Below, in pieces: positions 44,104-56,707 of a stretch of DNA of 64,000 bases (within the stretch, counting starts at the first letter, position 1; every line of letters starts with the position of its first letter). The stretch is from an uncultured Bacilli bacterium (GTDB lineage: Bacteria > Bacillota_I > Bacilli_A > RF39 > UBA660), in assembly GCA_947627805.1 (NCBI GenBank), contig CANQXB010000001.1, forward strand, positions 24,836-88,835, in the 5' to 3' direction. A model generated the notes under the pieces. The model was not told the DNA's origin. It ran no database searches and saw only the letters and a program-made list of their open reading frames with translations. A program made the translations under genes and the position numbers.

Positions 44104-44766
44104 CTACCACTTAAACTTATCACCTAACAATTCTTTATATTCTTTTTCAAAAGCTATCTTTGCTCTTTGAGCAGATATATCAATATGTCCATCAGGTTTT
44201 AAAATTAAATCTTGTTGAGGTCGAGCAATAACTTTTTCCCAATCTGTAAAAGGCGCTTGCAAAAAACGTCTATTATATTTTGGTAATTGCGAAAAACGGT
44301 TAGTAATATATTTAAAACTTACTAACTTAAAATTATTTATTTCAAGACACGTACTAATATAATTTGGTTTGTCAATTATATTATTATGAAGATGAGCATA
44401 TACGTTAATTTGGTCATCAAATACATTTTGAGGAATATGACTAATACAAATTTTATCATTGATATAAATAGGATATTCATATATAATATCAAAATATTGT
44501 TTAAATAATGTTATATCTGTATGTTTATCATGATTGCCAAACATAAATATTGTTTTACATTTAAAATTATTCATTAAATATAAAAATTCAGTATTCCCCC
44601 AATCACCTAAAACCCAAAGCTCATCTTCTTCATGTAATATTGTAGACCATTCAATAAAACTATTTACTAAAAATTGATCATGCATTTTAATATTTGAAAA
44701 TTGTGGGCGAGCCCATTCAATAATATTTTTATGAGAGAAATGAGGGTCACCTAAGAAAAACTTCAT
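44104..44766 (-). CDS. calcineurin-like metallophosphoesterase (paralogue 2 of 3)
   Basis: GDPHF...LGDWGN...GNHD. Confidence 0.65.
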   Translation of the reverse strand: MKFFLGDPHFSHKNIIEWARPQFSNIKMHDQFLVNSFIEWSTILHEEDELWVLGDWGNTEFLYLMNNFKCKTIFMFGNHDKHTDITLFKQYFDIIYEYPIYINDKICISHIPQNVFDDQINVYAHLHNNIIDKPNYISTCLEINNFKLVSFKYITNRFSQLPKYNRRFLQAPFTDWEKVIARPQQDLILKPDGHIDISAQRAKIAFEKEYKELLGDKFKW

Positions 44767-45572
44767 TTAAAAAACTCTTTCCATTTATATCCATAACTAC
44801 TTTGAGATTTCCCCATACAAGCACGACGAATATTGCCTCCGCCATTAGCATTTTTCCCTATTTTTAAAGCTGCTTCAGTATAGTTACTATATTCTGCAAT
44901 TATTTTACCAGTTTTTGAATCAATTTGTTGAATAATACGTTTTTTAGGTTTTTGTAAAGTTGCATAATCTTCTACTTTACACCATCTAAAATTATAAGCT
45001 GTATGTTGTATATTATTAATTGCTAATTCTATTGCAGAGCGTGTACCATGCAAAGCTGCTGCCGCTGCTTTTATAGATGGATACTGTTTAATAATTTCTA
45101 AGGTATCTTTATCCAATTGATAGATCGGAATTGATGTTGTATTAGGTTTATTGTAAACACCTCGCTTACCTATTACTTTTCTAACAACACGTCTATCGCA
45201 TCCAAAATAATTAGCGGTTTGCTGGATATTTTGTAATTCTTTATATTTGGTCCAAATAGCGTCATAATCATATTGAGTGTTTCCATCGCCACCACGAGTA
45301 GCATTATATCCATTAGAATAAGTATTTAACTTATTAATCCAAAATTGTTCTCGTTCATCAATTTCTTCTTCATTGCATACTTCTAAAGTTGTAATAAAAA
45401 AATTATCTTCTCCATATTTTTTTATTGCATCATATAATGGACGTTTTTTATTTTGACTAGAATTAATATCACTTAAATGTTTTTTATATCTAGTCTGAAC
45501 ATCTGACATAGTTTTGCCTACATATTGTTTTCCATTTATTTTATTGGTGATACAATAGATAAATCCATTCAT
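44763..45572 (-). CDS. free-standing GIY-YIG homing-endonuclease-like protein
   Basis: GFIYCITNKINGKQYVGKT...R...H GIY-YIG motif plus a C-terminal DNA-binding region. Confidence 0.7.
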   Translation of the reverse strand: MNGFIYCITNKINGKQYVGKTMSDVQTRYKKHLSDINSSQNKKRPLYDAIKKYGEDNFFITTLEVCNEEEIDEREQFWINKLNTYSNGYNATRGGDGNTQYDYDAIWTKYKELQNIQQTANYFGCDRRVVRKVIGKRGVYNKPNTTSIPIYQLDKDTLEIIKQYPSIKAAAAALHGTRSAIELAINNIQHTAYNFRWCKVEDYATLQKPKKRIIQQIDSKTGKIIAEYSNYTEAALKIGKNANGGGNIRRACMGKSQSSYGYKWKEFFK

Positions 45573-46289: not shown

Positions 46290-46781
46290 TTAAACAATAG
46301 AGCACAAAATACGCACTTCTCCTGGATTAGGATAATAAATGCCATTCTCTTCTACAATAAAATTAATCTTAGACATAAAATTCTCTAATGCATTATATTG
46401 CGGATAATTTCCATCCTCATCAGGCTCAACATCATAATCAGTAACCATAACTTGATCAGTTTCCGCAAGCAGATTTAACTCAATATAATCATACCAAGTA
46501 GTTTGCGCGGCACTTCGCATAGAGACAGAGAACTCACCATCTTCATCATCTTCTTTGCTATCAAAATATTTGCTAGCAATAGGTCCAAGTTCTTTAGGAA
46601 GGCGTCGCCAGCTACCTTCAAACTTTTCAAACAGCAATTCAAACAACTCATAATCTGCATTACCAGTATCTAGCCACAAAGGCTCAAACTCGCCATCTTC
46701 ATTTTTAATATAAAAAGTTACATCTTCCCAAGAACCATCCTCATTACGCTTTTCAATAAAAAATCTAGGGGTGCGGCTCAT
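46290..46781 (-). CDS. acidic hypothetical protein
   Basis: Tracked ORF 46290..46808; likely start is ATG at 46781 behind RBS AAAGGAGAG, which avoids overlapping the tRNA. Confidence 0.5.
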   Translation of the reverse strand: MSRTPRFFIEKRNEDGSWEDVTFYIKNEDGEFEPLWLDTGNADYELFELLFEKFEGSWRRLPKELGPIASKYFDSKEDDEDGEFSVSMRSAAQTTWYDYIELNLLAETDQVMVTDYDVEPDEDGNYPQYNALENFMSKINFIVEENGIYYPNPGEVRILCSIV

Positions 46782-46800
46782 AGTAACTCTCCTTTTTTGT

Positions 46801-46895
46801 TGGTACACGCGGAGGGACTTGAACCCCCATCGTGCGCTAATCTGGCGCTTATCTCGGGTATAAACCGAGCGCTCTGCCCATTGAGCTACGCGTGC
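46801..46895 (-). tRNA. atypical 95-nt tRNA with a 24-nt variable arm and apparent anticodon UAU
   Basis: GCACGCG-TA-GCTC/AATGGGCA/GAGC-G-CTCGG/TTTATAC/CCGAG, then variable arm with GCGC/GCGC stem, then GGGGG/TTCAAGT/CCCTC-CGCGTGT-A-CCA; identity uncertain. Confidence 0.6.
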
Positions 46896-46917: not shown

Positions 46918-46946
46918 ATTATAACATTAATATTTTTTGCTGTCAA
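46918..46946 (-). promoter_or_regulatory. sigma-A-type promoter, perfect TTGACA, 17 nt, TATAAT with TGn; drives the tRNA and the downstream gene
   Basis: Minus-strand reading TTGACAgcaaaaaatattaatgtTATAAT. Confidence 0.6.
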
Positions 46947-46954
46947 AATAATTT

Positions 46955-48145
46955 TTAAACTGCCTTAAAATTATAAATAGGAGTTAATTGCTCAGTTATA
47001 ACAAAACCATTACGAGTTAGGAGTTCTTCTAATGCTTTACTACTATTATATGTATTAGGAGCTTCATCTAATGTAGACTCAGTAACACAACTAGAATAAA
47101 TTCCATTCATTGATGCCTTATATGACTCTATTTGCAATAGTAGATGTGCGGCTGTACGTGACATTACACGACCAGCCCCATGCGGCAAACTATTATTCCA
47201 ATCTTCGTTCTCACACCCTTCGATAATAAGTAGTCCATCCCGCATATTTAACGGAACTAGACATCTCGCGTTTGTACAGTCGATAGCACCTTTTCGCACT
47301 ATATGATTATCTACATCAACGTAATTATGTAAACTTGTTGCAACTATAGAATAATTATAATAACCTATTAACATATTGGCCATAGCAATATGACTTACTA
47401 AAGACCAATTTGCACAAACTAACATATCATTTAAATAATCATCTAAATCATTACCTTCAATATAAGCTAAATCAGACTCTAAAGCATACTTTTCAATTTG
47501 TATTCCATGTAACATATCTAACATCTGGCTAATTAATTGTTCTTGATGCGTCTCTTTCCCATATGAAATAACAGCTTCCCGCATTGTTTTAAGTAGGTTA
47601 CCTTTACTTTTGGATTTTTCTACAGCAATTTTCTGATAAAAATTACAAACTTGTACTCCTAAATTGCGGGAACCACTATGTATAACAAGATAAACACGAC
47701 CATTGTCATCTACATCTAATTCGATATAGTGATTGCCTCCTCCAAGAGTGCCTTGAGAATTGATAATACGTTGATGATTACTAATATAATCCCAACACAT
47801 CAATTCATTATAATCAAAAGAAGAAACAGAATGATTATGAATATTTCTTCCTGTTGGAATAACAGAACGTACTTTTTTATCAAATTTATCTAAATCTGTC
47901 ATATCTTCTAAGAACCAAGGGGTTTCAAATAGCGATATGCGGCAACCAATATCAACTCCTACAGTATTAGGACAAATCTTATCACTAAATGTAGAGGTAA
48001 AACCAACACAAGACCCTTTACCCGCATGCGCATCTGGCATAATGCGGATTTTCTGGTCCACATACGCAGGACTTGCCGCAATTTCTGCAACCTGGTCTAA
48101 TAGTTTTTTGGTTTTATTTAAAGCAAAATTTTTAACATCAGTCAT
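46955..48145 (-). CDS. rtcB: RtcB RNA 3'-phosphate/2',3'-cyclic-phosphate ligase
   Basis: MPDAHAGKG, GVDIGC, GGGNHYIE and HSGSRNLG RtcB motifs; start moved to ATG 48145 behind RBS AGAAAGGGG. Confidence 0.8.
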   Translation of the reverse strand: MTDVKNFALNKTKKLLDQVAEIAASPAYVDQKIRIMPDAHAGKGSCVGFTSTFSDKICPNTVGVDIGCRISLFETPWFLEDMTDLDKFDKKVRSVIPTGRNIHNHSVSSFDYNELMCWDYISNHQRIINSQGTLGGGNHYIELDVDDNGRVYLVIHSGSRNLGVQVCNFYQKIAVEKSKSKGNLLKTMREAVISYGKETHQEQLISQMLDMLHGIQIEKYALESDLAYIEGNDLDDYLNDMLVCANWSLVSHIAMANMLIGYYNYSIVATSLHNYVDVDNHIVRKGAIDCTNARCLVPLNMRDGLLIIEGCENEDWNNSLPHGAGRVMSRTAAHLLLQIESYKASMNGIYSSCVTESTLDEAPNTYNSSKALEELLTRNGFVITEQLTPIYNFKAV

Positions 48146-48178
48146 AAAAAAAATCCCCTTTCTTAACAATATAAATAT

Positions 48179-48229: not shown

Positions 48230-49250
48230 GGTTAACGCCAAGACACTGCAAAACTTGGCGGATGTTAGCAGGCGGTGAGCCTATGATTCGTTTATATAAA
48301 CAGGCGGAGTACTTACTATCGACTATATGATCTTTCTCCGCGTCATATTTAACGTGTGACCAACCACGGTAAGCGTTTAATTTTTTTGACTGTTTATTTT
48401 ATTAATTATTAAATATAGATTTACAAAACTCTTAAACTGACTTTCGCCATACTCGCAAGCCCGCATAAATATTCAGCCACGTAGGAGATAAGTCTGACTC
48501 ATAAGGAGCGACCTTATAAGTTCTTACCCCGGCATCTTACCATATCTACGAGTGGATTGGTTACCACTAACTTTCACCCACCATTCAGAAATTGAATGGG
48601 ACTTTTTCCTCAAAAGCCAAATTAATTATTATTTAGTCTATTAATCTTCCTCAATTTGGGCTACTCGCTCTTTGAACTTTCCTTATAGTTAATTACTTAG
48701 CATCAACGAGGAAACTTACTTATTTGGATTCCCTAACGTACTATGAGGTTCCACCCTCATGCCTAATTAGGGTTCAAAGGTGCGCTGCACCCGCCTATTA
48801 CGCAAGCGGAAAGATAAAGCCTTTTTATACGAAACTCTTTTGAGCGCCATTCTCTTTTGTTGGAAGTTTCTTCCTTCTGCGACTTGGTTACCTGCTGCCG
48901 CAATGTCCGCCCACGATAAAAGTATCCTTTTATCGGACAGGCACTTAAGGGATGCCCCTGACCGCATGGTATTGCGCATGCACAAGGTTGTAAAGAGTTT
49001 TGTAAATCTATATTCAATTTTCAATTTACATTTTAGGTACCTTATTTTGTAAGGCACCTAATGTGGGGCATCTATTTTGTAGACGCCCCACGTAAATGAC
49101 TTAACATTAAGTCATATAAACTACTGCCCTATGATGTAGTTTACACCCAGCAACCCTCCGCTGCCCTGATAACCCTTCCCAGTAACCGATTGATTTGCAG
49201 AACGCAGGCTCAATCACATAGAACAGATCGTATGTTTAGTTTAAAGCCTT
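48230..49250 (-). ncRNA. candidate large structured non-coding RNA (about 1 kb), unclassified
   Basis: No ORF over about 95 aa on either strand; local GC far above the genome background; 12 or more strong hairpins (for example CCGATAAAAG-tatc-CTTTTATCGG, GTGGGGC...GCCCCAC, ATGACTTAA-cat-TTAAGTCAT, CCATTCA-gaaatt-GAATGG); two tandem consensus promoters directly upstream. Confidence 0.4.
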
Positions 49251-50249: not shown

Positions 50250-50541
50250 ATTTATTCCTTTCTTTTGGAATAAAAATTTTTTTCTGGTGGAGCTGCTGAC
50301 TTACGATAGCCAGGTCCTAACATACTAATTACTAAATCCTTAATATAATCTAAAAGATAAAATTAGTTAATAAATGTGCCTTTTAATGATTCTTCCTCGC
50401 ACGTAAAAGGCATCGGTGCGAGGTATAGGCTTATGCTGCCATTGCAAAATTAAATTTGTCAGTTAATTTTTTAAAGGTGATTACAGATTTAGCTTTCATA
50501 TCCTAGTCGAATCCTTTCAGCCCCTTTCTCATTATATTAAT

Positions 50542-55220: not shown

Positions 55221-55251
55221 AAATAAAAAAAGTGCGGAAACCCGCACTTTT
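55221..55251. terminator. bidirectional rho-independent terminator downstream of the Ro60-like gene
   Basis: AAAAAAA-GTGCGG-aaac-CCGCAC-TTTT. Confidence 0.65.
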
Positions 55252-56707
55252 AATAATGAATTGCTTGAATTACTTCTTCTAGTTTTAATCCTTGGTTTGC
55301 CTCCATATATGGGAACAATTTAAATACTTTATCATTTAGTGCGGTCATTAGATGAACATAAGGATTATTTGGATTAGCAATCTGTCCTTTGTAATTGCCT
55401 AAGTCAAAACTAAATATATCTGTACGACCATATTTTGTACAATAACGATTATAAGAATTAACAGTATTCTCACGACTATTATAATAATGGTCTTCCATTG
55501 TTTGCATATCACTAATAAGAAAGATGCGGTCAACTTTTTCATCTAATTGATTGAATGCTTTTGGAACATTAGTGCCATATCCTAGATTTTCTTCATCAAT
55601 CATATGTTCAATACTAACAAATGGATTAAATCTAATTGCATTTGTATCATAATTTTTCTTTTTAGCTGAAGTGCCAAATTTAATGAATACACTTTCAGGA
55701 TTTTGAATCAATAGAGTCGCCGCATATACTGCGCCAACTTCTTTAAGAGTAATAACACTCTTAGGTGACATGCGACAATCCATAGACCCAGATATATCAA
55801 GCATAATAGCTGTGCGGCCATCCAGCTGGGGAATATTTCCAACAGCCGCATAGAATGCTTGTTGAAGAGCATCAATTAAATTACCTGGCACAATATCTTT
55901 AATCTCACGATAAGCCGCATAAATTTGATATGGAAATACTAATGATTTATAGATTGCTATTTGATTACATACTTGGCCGCAAAGATATTTAGTAATCCAC
56001 TCTCTTGAAACTCCGCTTTGTAAAATATTGCGGAGATTGCGGATGAGCGCTAAATATCCAAGTTGCTTTTTCTCAACTAGATTTTGCCAAGCCTTACAAC
56101 GTTCTTCTTCTGACTGCTGTTGAGAAATATTACGTTCCCACGTATCAATTTCTGAATATTGTTCATATACAAACTTATCAATATGCGGGGAAGTTGCATG
56201 AGTAATTCTAATTAAATCATGCATATTATATTTTTTACCCTTTAGCTTATATTTTGCTAATTGGTAACCTGTTAACTGTGAGAGATAATCGCAAATACCT
56301 CGAACCACCGCATGAGATCTCTTTTGTCCCATCATCTCAATTGCCGCGAATAGTTCTGCCGCGTCATCAGGTCTATGCGGGAAGTGCGCATAGAACTGAC
56401 GTTTATTAGCAAATTGGAGGTCATTAAGATACGCCGCTACTAAAGTAGCCGCGCTCCGCATTCCAAGTTCATTACGAGCAAAGTAAGCGCCCTTTGCCGC
56501 AAATTCTGGCCCCTTAGTATCAATTACTTTTTGAGTCAGATCAAGGAAACGAGTTGTTTGTTCTGTTTCTGTTTCATAAAATTTATCTGAGAGGAAAGAT
56601 GAAAACATAAAATTAATCCAATCCTCTGTTGGATTTTTTTGATACAACTCTGCGCCCTCGTATGATATTGTTTTAGGTGCTTCTTGCTTCATATTAAATT
56701 TGGACAT
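55250..56707 (-). CDS. Ro60-like RNA-binding protein (TROVE domain plus C-terminal vWA domain with MIDAS motif)
   Basis: 485 aa; MIDAS LDISGSM with downstream GYGTNV and LISDMQT metal-site equivalents; N-terminal alpha-helical-repeat region consistent with TROVE; assignment from motif layout only. Confidence 0.55.
   Translation of the reverse strand: MSKFNMKQEAPKTISYEGAELYQKNPTEDWINFMFSSFLSDKFYETETEQTTRFLDLTQKVIDTKGPEFAAKGAYFARNELGMRSAATLVAAYLNDLQFANKRQFYAHFPHRPDDAAELFAAIEMMGQKRSHAVVRGICDYLSQLTGYQLAKYKLKGKKYNMHDLIRITHATSPHIDKFVYEQYSEIDTWERNISQQQSEEERCKAWQNLVEKKQLGYLALIRNLRNILQSGVSREWITKYLCGQVCNQIAIYKSLVFPYQIYAAYREIKDIVPGNLIDALQQAFYAAVGNIPQLDGRTAIMLDISGSMDCRMSPKSVITLKEVGAVYAATLLIQNPESVFIKFGTSAKKKNYDTNAIRFNPFVSIEHMIDEENLGYGTNVPKAFNQLDEKVDRIFLISDMQTMEDHYYNSRENTVNSYNRYCTKYGRTDIFSFDLGNYKGQIANPNNPYVHLMTALNDKVFKLFPYMEANQGLKLEEVIQAIHY

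Follow-up and report, generated by a model that had tools for sequence, protein, structure and literature searches.

What is a tRNA that combines a UAU anticodon with a long variable arm, and how could it serve the translation of a bacterium or its phage? The question arises from a 64,000-nt stretch of DNA (contig CANQXB010000001.1 of assembly GCA_947627805.1, positions 24,836 to 88,835; here called the window), which is deposited under an uncultured Bacilli bacterium and consists of phage DNA from a large AT-rich phage of about 32% G+C. To our knowledge, AUA is the sole sense codon that lies beyond the reach of the unmodified standard tRNAs of bacteria. The known solutions are lysidine, made by TilS, agmatidine, and a synthetase and ribosome that have adapted to a UAU anticodon. 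The original prediction for the tRNA gene in the window offered a hybrid or recoding tRNA with a Leu- or Tyr-like body, a tRNA carrying an insertion, or a noncanonical tRNA-like RNA. We find that the gene is an ordinary member of an apparently undescribed family of long-arm tRNA(UAU) genes, and its sequence and context indicate a genuine elongator tRNA that reads AUA as isoleucine.

ARAGORN calls the gene tRNA-Ile(tat), 95 nt in length and one of three tRNAs called in the window, and places it on the minus strand, a point absent from the original prediction (coordinates in Table 1). The Rfam tRNA model RF00005 aligns in full with positions 46804-46895 at 61.5 bits (gathering score, 29), with a 21-nt insertion in the variable region. 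The original prediction was exposed to a tRNA finder returning a conventional identity with a different fold, and this did not occur, as both programs return the fold that had been claimed. The 5' half of the RNA reads GCACGCG UA GCUC AAUGGGCA GAGC G CUCGG UUUAUAC CCGAG, and the 3' half reads AUAA GCGC CAGAUUA GCGC ACGAU GGGGG UUCAAGU CCCUC CGCGUGU A CCA. The minimum free energy fold is exactly the five-arm cloverleaf (-35.5 kcal/mol; z = -2.24 against shuffled sequences). The predicted 7-bp acceptor stem with first pair G1-U72, 4-bp D stem, T arm, A73, and encoded CCA are all confirmed on the sequence, as are the anticodon loop UUUAUAC and its anticodon UAU, on which ARAGORN agrees. The 24-nt variable region likewise has the GCGC/GCGC stem ascribed to it, a stem that covaries in relatives (see below). 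The features of an elongator in RF00005 are complete, including the 5-bp T stem and the 7-nt anticodon loop with U33, and the tertiary positions (U8, A14, G18 G19, A21, U33, A37, TTCRA, and C61) are all canonical. The D arm (GUAGCUCA...GAGC, with the 4-bp stem GCUC/GAGC) is of the class-I type, which differs from that of class-II tRNAs. The view that no textbook class-II identity fits this tRNA is borne out by the UAU anticodon and the class-I D arm.

To assess how widely this design occurs, we scanned IMG/VR for genes in which a class-I D arm and U33-UAU-A37 are followed by an unusually wide gap before the T loop, with all matches listed. The scan returned 118 contigs with one shared arm design throughout, consisting of the anticodon arm (hairpin 1), a 2- to 4-nt linker, a 4- to 5-bp hairpin (hairpin 2), a 5- to 6-nt tail, and the T arm. 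The loop of hairpin 2 is nearly always CAGAUUA or a near variant. A parallel scan for UAU with a variable loop of normal length returned at least 120 contigs, so that the long-arm form makes up a sizeable fraction of phage tRNA(UAU) genes. When the anticodon was left free and the CAGATTA loop was required, 113 contigs were retrieved, with UAU in 111 and malformed sequence in 2; in this anticodon-free search, hairpin 2 is paired solely with the UAU anticodon. The sole non-UAU matches, on the jumbo-phage contigs L247 (7769-7816) and L253, are tRNA-like, with a class-I D arm and CAGATTA but no recognizable anticodon or T arms. An exact 23-mer of the window tRNA is absent from IMG/VR. Long-arm tRNA(UAU) genes are present on at least 131 IMG/VR viral contigs, as well as in isolated phages and bacterial tRNA arrays, and comprise 107 distinct sequences. 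The window tRNA carries every mark of the family: UAU, the 7/5 branch, A73, a class-I D arm, the G-A-Y tip of hairpin 2, and a 5- to 6-nt 3' linker ending in the Levitt partner. Among GenBank isolates, Synechococcus phage SynMITS9220M01 has a long-arm tRNA(UAU) annotated just as "tRNA-Ile," Synechococcus phage DSL-LC02 has an unannotated one, and in Aeromonas phage 1233 an unannotated one lies inside a 15-tRNA cluster. The D arm of the Aeromonas phage tRNA falls outside our search pattern, which indicates that the family is wider than our counts. These three phages are cultured carriers on which the family can be tested. Some members have thus been annotated automatically as tRNA-Ile with the arm overlooked.

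We also ran the long-arm pattern on one genome per GTDB species. Among the bacterial matches listed are many Acidobacteriota, a family of Gammaproteobacteria, several Alphaproteobacteria, including Azospirillum oleiclasticum, and a complete Acidithiobacillus chromosome, together with genomes labeled Verrucomicrobia, Elusimicrobia, Heliobacteria-related, Melainabacteria, Parcubacteria, and Cyanobacteria. Archaeal matches proved to be intron-containing tRNAIle(UAU) genes and were set aside. The bacterial genes share the arm design of the phage genes and lie in arrays of 16 to 38 tRNAs. Rfam reports 346 tRNA matches across 18 bacterial loci of 3 to 8 kb, and every array slice has a single long-arm Ile(tat), in most cases together with one Ile(gat), and zero to two CAU genes. 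These loci are tRNA arrays of the long, horizontally transferred kind that has been described, typically with an HNH endonuclease (PMC4758250, PMC5966550, PMC8421152). One such array in Mycobacterium mucogenicum includes a "rare tRNAIle(TAT)" shown to be expressed, and the passages covered from that report do not mention an extra arm (PMC6582537). Clustering of the neighboring open reading frames (ORFs) at 45 bacterial loci revealed HNH in 13 and RtcB in 5. RtcB is encoded near the long-arm tRNA in contigs L256, L342, L344, L350, and L354, and most family members have no rtcB within 4 kb. A neighbor-gene enrichment analysis found no universal partner protein, just lineage-specific genes plus HNH and RtcB, both of which are general features of tRNA arrays.

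Several of these loci hold further unusual RNA genes. Three arrays, two from Acidobacteria metagenome-assembled genomes (MAGs) and one from a MAG labeled Heliomicrobium, contain an adjacent paralog of the long-arm tRNA(UAU) (L338 5639-5731, L269 4323-4413, and L334 359-449) that resembles it in the acceptor stem and the extra arm (in L338, the tip is CAGAUCG) and has an aberrant A-rich anticodon loop that ARAGORN leaves unassigned. An Elusimicrobia MAG array encodes a bacterial RNase P RNA (L256 3088-3413, plus strand; 103.1 bits) beside HNH, RtcB, and the long-arm tRNA(UAU). Other long-arm phage tRNAs have Thr, Lys, Cys, and Trp anticodons (L245 15-102, L089 6629-6719, L184 349-434, and L159 2262-2347) and, unlike the Ile(UAU) family, class-II-type (Ser/Leu-like) D arms.

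The original prediction took from textbooks the rule that long variable arms are confined to Leu, Ser, Tyr, and Sec tRNAs; the long-arm tRNA(UAU) of phages and tRNA arrays breaks this rule, and the premise fails for such genes. A literature search located tRNAIle(UAU) in a few bacteria, in arrays, and in phages, along with other long-arm tRNAs, and did not find a conserved arm on tRNAIle(UAU), although its coverage is incomplete and such an absence is no proof.

The architecture is a class-I body that bears two tandem hairpins, each the size of an anticodon arm. Hairpin 1 follows directly on G26 and has a canonical loop with UAU, and in sequence parsing the removal of either hairpin leaves a perfect class-I tRNA. 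We measured linker and stem lengths with a purpose-written parser over the 107 distinct sequences, in which the stem of hairpin 2 has 4 bp in 62 and 5 bp in 34. Along its loop, position 1 is C in 82%, position 2 is A in 80%, positions 3 and 4 are G and A in 100%, position 5 is U in 93% and C in 7%, position 6 is U in 69%, and position 7 is A in 81%. The 3' tail that follows is 5 nt in 79 of the 107 and has the pattern N-Y-G-R-U, as do the variable loops of class-I controls. Its last base covaries perfectly with position 15 in the Levitt pair (A:U in 100 sequences and G:C in 7). In an alignment of 73 distinct sequences, the first two core pairs of hairpin 2 are GC 47/UA 10/AU 4/CG 4 and CG 64/GC 4, and the last two are GC 38/AU 21/CG 11/UA 2 and CG 55/GC 15. 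Over the whole structure, paired cells amount to 95.0%, compared with 70.6% when shuffled and 35-44% when the partners are slid; the anticodon stem was excluded from the counted structure because MAFFT misplaced gaps in its 3' half. RNAalifold independently predicts the hairpin 2 helix. A compensatory change is also seen at close range, as the outermost hairpin 2 pair is G-C in the window and A-U in the close relative L344.

The center of hairpin 2 is GAU, the anticodon of the major tRNAIle, and it is flanked by C and A, as is typical at positions 32 and 38. In a few family members, the loop is CUGAUAA, the exact loop of tRNAIle(GAU). Hairpin 2 usually has A where U33 is expected and U where a purine 37 is expected, and without these it should be unable to decode. 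The decoding loop of hairpin 1 has C38 in 77 of 107 family members, in contrast to A38 in 74 of 91 class-I phage tRNA(UAU) controls. A weak first pair, of which G1-U72 is one example, is found in 50 of 107 family members and in 23 of the 91 controls. Two other roles for the conserved tip were considered and rejected. Pairing of the tip with the D, T, or anticodon loop leaves no covariation, and the nucleotides in question are already engaged in core tertiary pairs. A role at the DNA level, as a homing-endonuclease or integrase site, would have to rely on 3 to 5 conserved bases inside a covarying RNA helix, which are too few.

What AUA means in this phage can be judged from its genes. Across 28 long ORFs with 12,553 codons in total, AUA occurs 234 times (24% of the Ile codons; 18.6 per 1000). 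Alignments of Pol III alpha and of GyrA, each including at most 120 homologs, provided 33 AUA sites. Homologs have I at these sites with a frequency of 0.36-0.41, V at 0.12-0.15, L at 0.09-0.13, and M at 0.08-0.10; the reference profiles are I 0.54-0.62 at AUU/AUC sites, L 0.54-0.72 at Leu sites, and V about 0.50 at Val sites. In cross-entropy scores, the AUA sites fit Ile best (-78.0), followed by Val (-86.8), Leu (-97.3), and Met (-102.6). Leu is the top residue at just 3 of the 33 sites, and the Ser and Tyr profiles likewise do not fit. Near phage relatives could themselves have AUA at the tested sites, and the Ile profile persists with GyrA homologs of less than 50% identity. Since the sites follow the AUU/AUC profile, the recoding reading of the original prediction is not supported. 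Its hybrid reading survives in one half: an AUA decoder with an extra arm agrees with the UAU anticodon and with AUA as Ile, and the Leu- or Tyr-like body finds no support, given the class-I D arm and what looks like a complete class-I variable loop after hairpin 2. An anticodon that pairs with AUA thus occurs in a genome in which AUA means isoleucine.

The position of the gene among relatives of this phage points in the same direction. Contigs L380 (RtcB 72% identical) and L344 (RtcB fragment 70% identical) retain a long-arm tRNA(UAU) after rtcB. In contig L379 (RtcB 63% identical), the same slot is occupied by a 76-nt tRNA(CAU) at 1381-1456 on the plus strand with A26, G27-U43, and a CUCAUAA loop, features that we take to be those of tRNAIle2. 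Its flanks match the window, with a similar TTGACA/TATAAT promoter before it and the same downstream ORF after it. More distant 140-kb relatives have no tRNA at the slot after rtcB. The presence of a tRNAIle2-like gene in L379 and of a long-arm tRNA(UAU) elsewhere indicates that two AUA decoders are interchangeable at one locus. The long-arm tRNA(UAU) accordingly stands where the lysidine-dependent tRNAIle2(CAU) otherwise would, as a predicted AUA decoder that is independent of lysidine.

Comparison with known tRNAs sets the family apart from each of them. Class-I tRNAIle(UAU), as in tRNAIle2 of Mycoplasma mobile, "tRNAIle3" of Bifidobacterium and Neorickettsia, and many phages, shares A73 and the UAU that reads AUA without lysidine. 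It has a variable loop of 4 to 5 nt and mostly A38, whereas the long-arm family has an extra conserved hairpin and mostly C38; the variable region in the window is 24 nt with a hairpin, compared with 4 to 5 nt in the controls. The tRNAIle2(CAU) that TilS modifies with lysidine does the same job of reading AUA as Ile, and in L379 it occupies the same slot. It requires conversion of C34 to lysidine and has no extra arm, whereas the window gene has the anticodon TAT, and thus no C34 for TilS, together with the arm. The bacterial class-II tRNAs (Leu, Ser, Tyr, and Sec) share the five-arm cloverleaf with a base-paired variable arm, here of 4 to 5 covarying bp. Class-II arms are read mainly by shape and orientation, have no conserved tip, and lie inside a variable loop with a short 3' tail. 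In the long-arm tRNA(UAU), by contrast, the arm ends in an invariant tip and is followed by a full 5-nt loop, and the tRNA lacks both a Leu, Ser, or Tyr anticodon and the class-II D arm and core. Nematode nev-tRNAIle(UAU) shares UAU and the long variable arm, but it is eukaryotic, has a Leu-like class-II body, and is leucylated in vitro (PMC3333845); the window tRNA has a class-I body, and AUA scores as Ile (-78.0) rather than Leu (-97.3). Allo-tRNAs share an irregular long arm, have UAU among their commonest anticodons, and occur in Acidobacteria and phages, but they are Ser/Sec-like with 8/4 or 9/3 acceptor/T branches (PMC5389517). The branches of the long-arm tRNA(UAU) are 7 + 5 bp, with covariation in both stems, and its discriminator is A73. 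Allo-tRNAs carry G73. An isotype comparison with hairpin 2 removed gave close scores for Asn, Arg, and Lys, and its class-I Ile(UAU) references had been chosen by the same D-arm pattern.

Why should this tRNA have kept its extra hairpin? The best explanation as a whole, which we consider on balance probable, is that it belongs to a mobile family of AUA-reading tRNAIle in which hairpin 2 would serve as a handle for charging, most likely by IleRS. Escherichia coli IleRS aminoacylates tRNAIle(UAU) inefficiently, which a single IleRS substitution repairs, and unmodified UAU confuses AUA with AUG on E. coli ribosomes; M. mobile solved both charging and misreading by an altered synthetase (Arg865) and ribosome (PMC3575796). 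A tRNA that moves between hosts cannot count on such host adaptations, and we infer that the arm is the tRNA's own compensation. The phage would transcribe the tRNA from its own consensus promoter, supporting the translation of AUA-rich genes. Hairpin 2 would act as a sequence-specific handle for a protein common to bacteria, with IleRS as the most likely candidate, and would secure Ile charging of a tRNA whose U34 is read poorly by ordinary bacterial IleRS. The AUA decoder brought in by the mobile element would thereby depend on neither TilS nor an IleRS adapted by the host. Three observations lead us to favor a role in charging: the arm goes with the one anticodon that IleRS recognizes poorly, its tip spells the one recognized best, and A38, a determinant for E. 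coli IleRS, has mostly been lost from the decoding loop, with the equivalent A retained in hairpin 2. As no phage-encoded protein is consistently found near the long-arm tRNA, the partner is probably a host protein. A synthetase that reads the tip of a variable arm has a precedent in archaeal tRNALeu, whose arm-tip bases are read by LeuRS (Haloferax and Pyrococcus studies), although the domain, the enzyme, and the tip sequence are all different. The long-arm family appears to be one more solution to AUA, a portable one that phages and mobile tRNA arrays use in many different phyla. Should the arm prove to contribute to identity or fidelity, the tRNA would carry its own compensation for an anticodon that the host machinery handles badly, which would bear on how tRNA identity evolves, on the host range of phages, and on efforts to design orthogonal or codon-reassigning tRNAs.

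The handle may act by showing a GAU pseudo-anticodon. In its full form, this idea gives the tRNA two anticodon arms, with hairpin 1 (UAU) decoding AUA and the GAU of hairpin 2 conferring Ile identity by proxy, and we hold it only tentatively, as a rather doubtful refinement. Hairpin 2, with its 5-bp stem, its 7-nt loop, and a normal variable loop behind it, would be offered to the anticodon-binding domain of IleRS through a swap of the hairpin stacked under the D stem. Charging would then proceed as if on tRNAIle(GAU), by any bacterial IleRS. If this were true, mobile elements would possess a portable uncoupling of the identity anticodon from the decoding anticodon, and members with a GAC tip might be charged with valine.

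Several points limit the explanation as a whole or weigh against a charging handle read by IleRS. Class-I aminoacyl-tRNA synthetases approach the tRNA opposite the variable region, so that contact of IleRS with the tip would need an unusual geometry. Armless class-I UAU tRNAs are no less frequent in phages (at least 120 contigs), which indicates that the arm is not obligatory. The tip is GAC, the Val anticodon, in 8 of 107 members, and the contrast between C38 and A38 may reflect shared descent alone. Because our search patterns fixed the D arm, U33, and A37, conservation at these positions is no independent evidence. Finally, the test for AUA as Ile gives the intended residue and not the tRNA that delivers it.

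The main rival to the charging role is a role in decoding fidelity, to which we give a minor but appreciable chance: the arm would recruit or exclude an enzyme that modifies the U34 region or would tune ribosome binding, so that AUA is read and AUG is not. The inability of unmodified UAU to tell AUA from AUG on E. coli ribosomes is a second problem for a mobile UAU tRNA (PMC3575796). The strict linkage of the arm to UAU is in keeping with this role, as is the unusual C32/C38 combination in the decoding loop. The 32-38 pair tunes decoding. However, we know of no bacterial U34-modifying enzyme whose recognition of its substrate depends on a variable arm, the neighborhoods of the long-arm tRNAs do not consistently encode a modification enzyme, and the class-I UAU phage tRNAs do without an arm. 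We regard as unlikely a role in antidefense, in which the arm would resist or decoy host nucleases that target tRNAs, or the RNA would be a tRNA-like molecule acting outside translation with RNA-repair genes. The tRNA adjoins rtcB in a phage that also has a Ro60/TROVE gene, a ROOL RNA, and a tmRNA-like RNA, RtcB recurs near family members, and tRNA arrays have been proposed as antidefense systems (PMC12803027). Yet RtcB is also found beside class-I control tRNAs (4 control loci), and the arm is restricted to the AUA-reading tRNA, although hosts normally have no UAU tRNA as a nuclease target. An invariant tip is more in line with specific recognition than with steric shielding, and both the tRNAIle2-like gene in the same slot and the single Ile(tat) per array point to ordinary decoding.

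The remaining alternatives are far less credible. The long arm could make the tRNA a substrate of LeuRS, SerRS, or TyrRS, or the GAC tip found in eight family members a substrate of ValRS, with AUA standing for another residue. In favor of such mischarging, nev-tRNAs with UAU are leucylated in vitro (PMC3333845). However, the AUA sites fit Ile and not Leu, Val, Ser, or Tyr, the D arm is class I, the G73 required by SerRS is absent, and a tRNAIle2-like gene substitutes at the same slot, all of which make it very improbable, even though the tRNA has A73 and A15-U48, which are identity elements of E. coli tRNALeu. We consider it equally hard to credit that hairpin 2 is an intervening sequence, excised and resealed to yield an ordinary 76-nt tRNAIle(UAU). 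Removal of the linker and hairpin 2 does leave a perfect class-I tRNA with a 5-nt variable loop, and the resealing could be done by RtcB, a member of a tRNA-splicing ligase family whose gene adjoins the tRNA here and in several arrays. Against this, the gene has neither a bulge-helix-bulge motif nor a group I intron fold, no gene for a splicing endonuclease lies in the neighborhood, and rtcB is missing within 4 kb of most members; we also know of no bacterial precedent for excision of such a hairpin from a tRNA. Nothing beyond the unusual length speaks for a neutral insertion or a decaying pseudogene, as the original prediction had allowed. The stem shows compensatory changes and the tip is invariant throughout 107 distinct sequences, drawn from phages and from bacteria that belong to many phyla. 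Together with a perfect promoter and an intact tRNA core, this leaves the reading a negligible chance, and we take the covariation to refute it.

Table 1. Positions in the window of the tRNA gene, its parts, and neighboring features
Feature	Position	Strand	Basis or remark
Whole tRNA gene, 95 nt	46801..46895	-	Encoded CCA at 46801-46803, discriminator A73 at 46804; ARAGORN, Rfam, minimum free energy fold
Hairpin 1, decoding anticodon arm CUCGG/UUUAUAC/CCGAG	46853..46869	-	Sequence, Rfam alignment
Anticodon UAU within hairpin 1	46860-46862	-	U33 and A37 present; sequence, Rfam alignment
5' linker AUAA, hairpin 1 to hairpin 2	46849..46852	-	Family range, 2-4 nt
Hairpin 2 (extra or "variable" arm), stem GCGC/GCGC	46834..46848	-	Stem covariation, conserved loop
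Hairpin 2 loop CAGAUUA, 7 nt	46838-46844	-	Invariant tip G-A-U at 46840-46842
3' linker ACGAU	46829..46833	-	Matches a complete class-I variable loop (44-48) in length and in the pattern N-Y-G-R-U; Levitt pair between its final U and A15
Sigma-70-type promoter, TTGACA-17 nt-TATAAT, extended -10 TG	46946..46918	-	12/12 consensus match
rtcB, RNA 3'-phosphate ligase, directly upstream	46955..48169	-	PHROG "tRNA splicing ligase," 2e-100
163-aa ORF, function not assigned	46290..46781	-	Gene call in L373 and sequence; start 20 nt past the tRNA CCA
ROOL RNA, full length	48418-49011	-	Rfam RF03087, 324.7 bits
tmRNA-like RNA, 240 nt	50285-50524	-	RF00023, 49.8 bits, barely over the gathering score of 47
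TROVE/Ro60-like RNA-binding protein	55250-56707	-	Pfam 4.7e-16, PHROG 1.1e-28
GIY-YIG homing endonuclease gene	44763-45572	-	

The surroundings of the gene agree with its description in the original prediction, which had placed it immediately downstream of rtcB behind a perfect consensus promoter. The end of rtcB (46955) lies 59 nt upstream of the tRNA, with the promoter in between, and 22 nt separate the end of the -10 element from tRNA position 1. Similar promoters precede the syntenic tRNAs in the sister contigs L379 and L380. We treat rtcB as genomic context for the tRNA rather than as a functional partner. On the other side, the 163-aa ORF is preceded by a strong ribosome-binding site, AAGGAGAG (46781-46803 region, minus strand), and is conserved beside both the UAU tRNA of L380 and the CAU tRNA of L379; a PHROG search with it produced no match. 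No terminator was predicted between the tRNA CCA and this ORF. The ORF is probably cotranscribed with the tRNA, which is probably the 5' part of an mRNA and would be freed by processing.

The phage encodes NrdD, Pol III alpha, GyrA/GyrB, RecJ, DnaB, a TROVE/Ro60-like protein, RtcB, a GIY-YIG homing endonuclease, a dCMP deaminase, and an M23 peptidase. BLAST searches with the window, near and distant, brought up no close relative of this genome among the GenBank phages. Along the minus strand, the tmRNA-like RNA comes first, followed by a 99-aa ORF, tRNA-Pro, ROOL, rtcB, and tRNA-Ile, with the ROOL RNA between tRNA-Pro and rtcB. The tRNA-like ends of the tmRNA-like RNA align well, most of its pseudoknot region is missing, and ARAGORN does not call it. 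No Y RNA reached the Rfam gathering threshold within the window. The occurrence of a TROVE/Ro60-like protein and RtcB in one phage suggests a module for RNA repair or quality control. The GIY-YIG gene lies between the small ORFs downstream of the tRNA and a phosphoesterase gene, and the sister contig L379 has no gene of such size at this position, which suggests a recent insertion.

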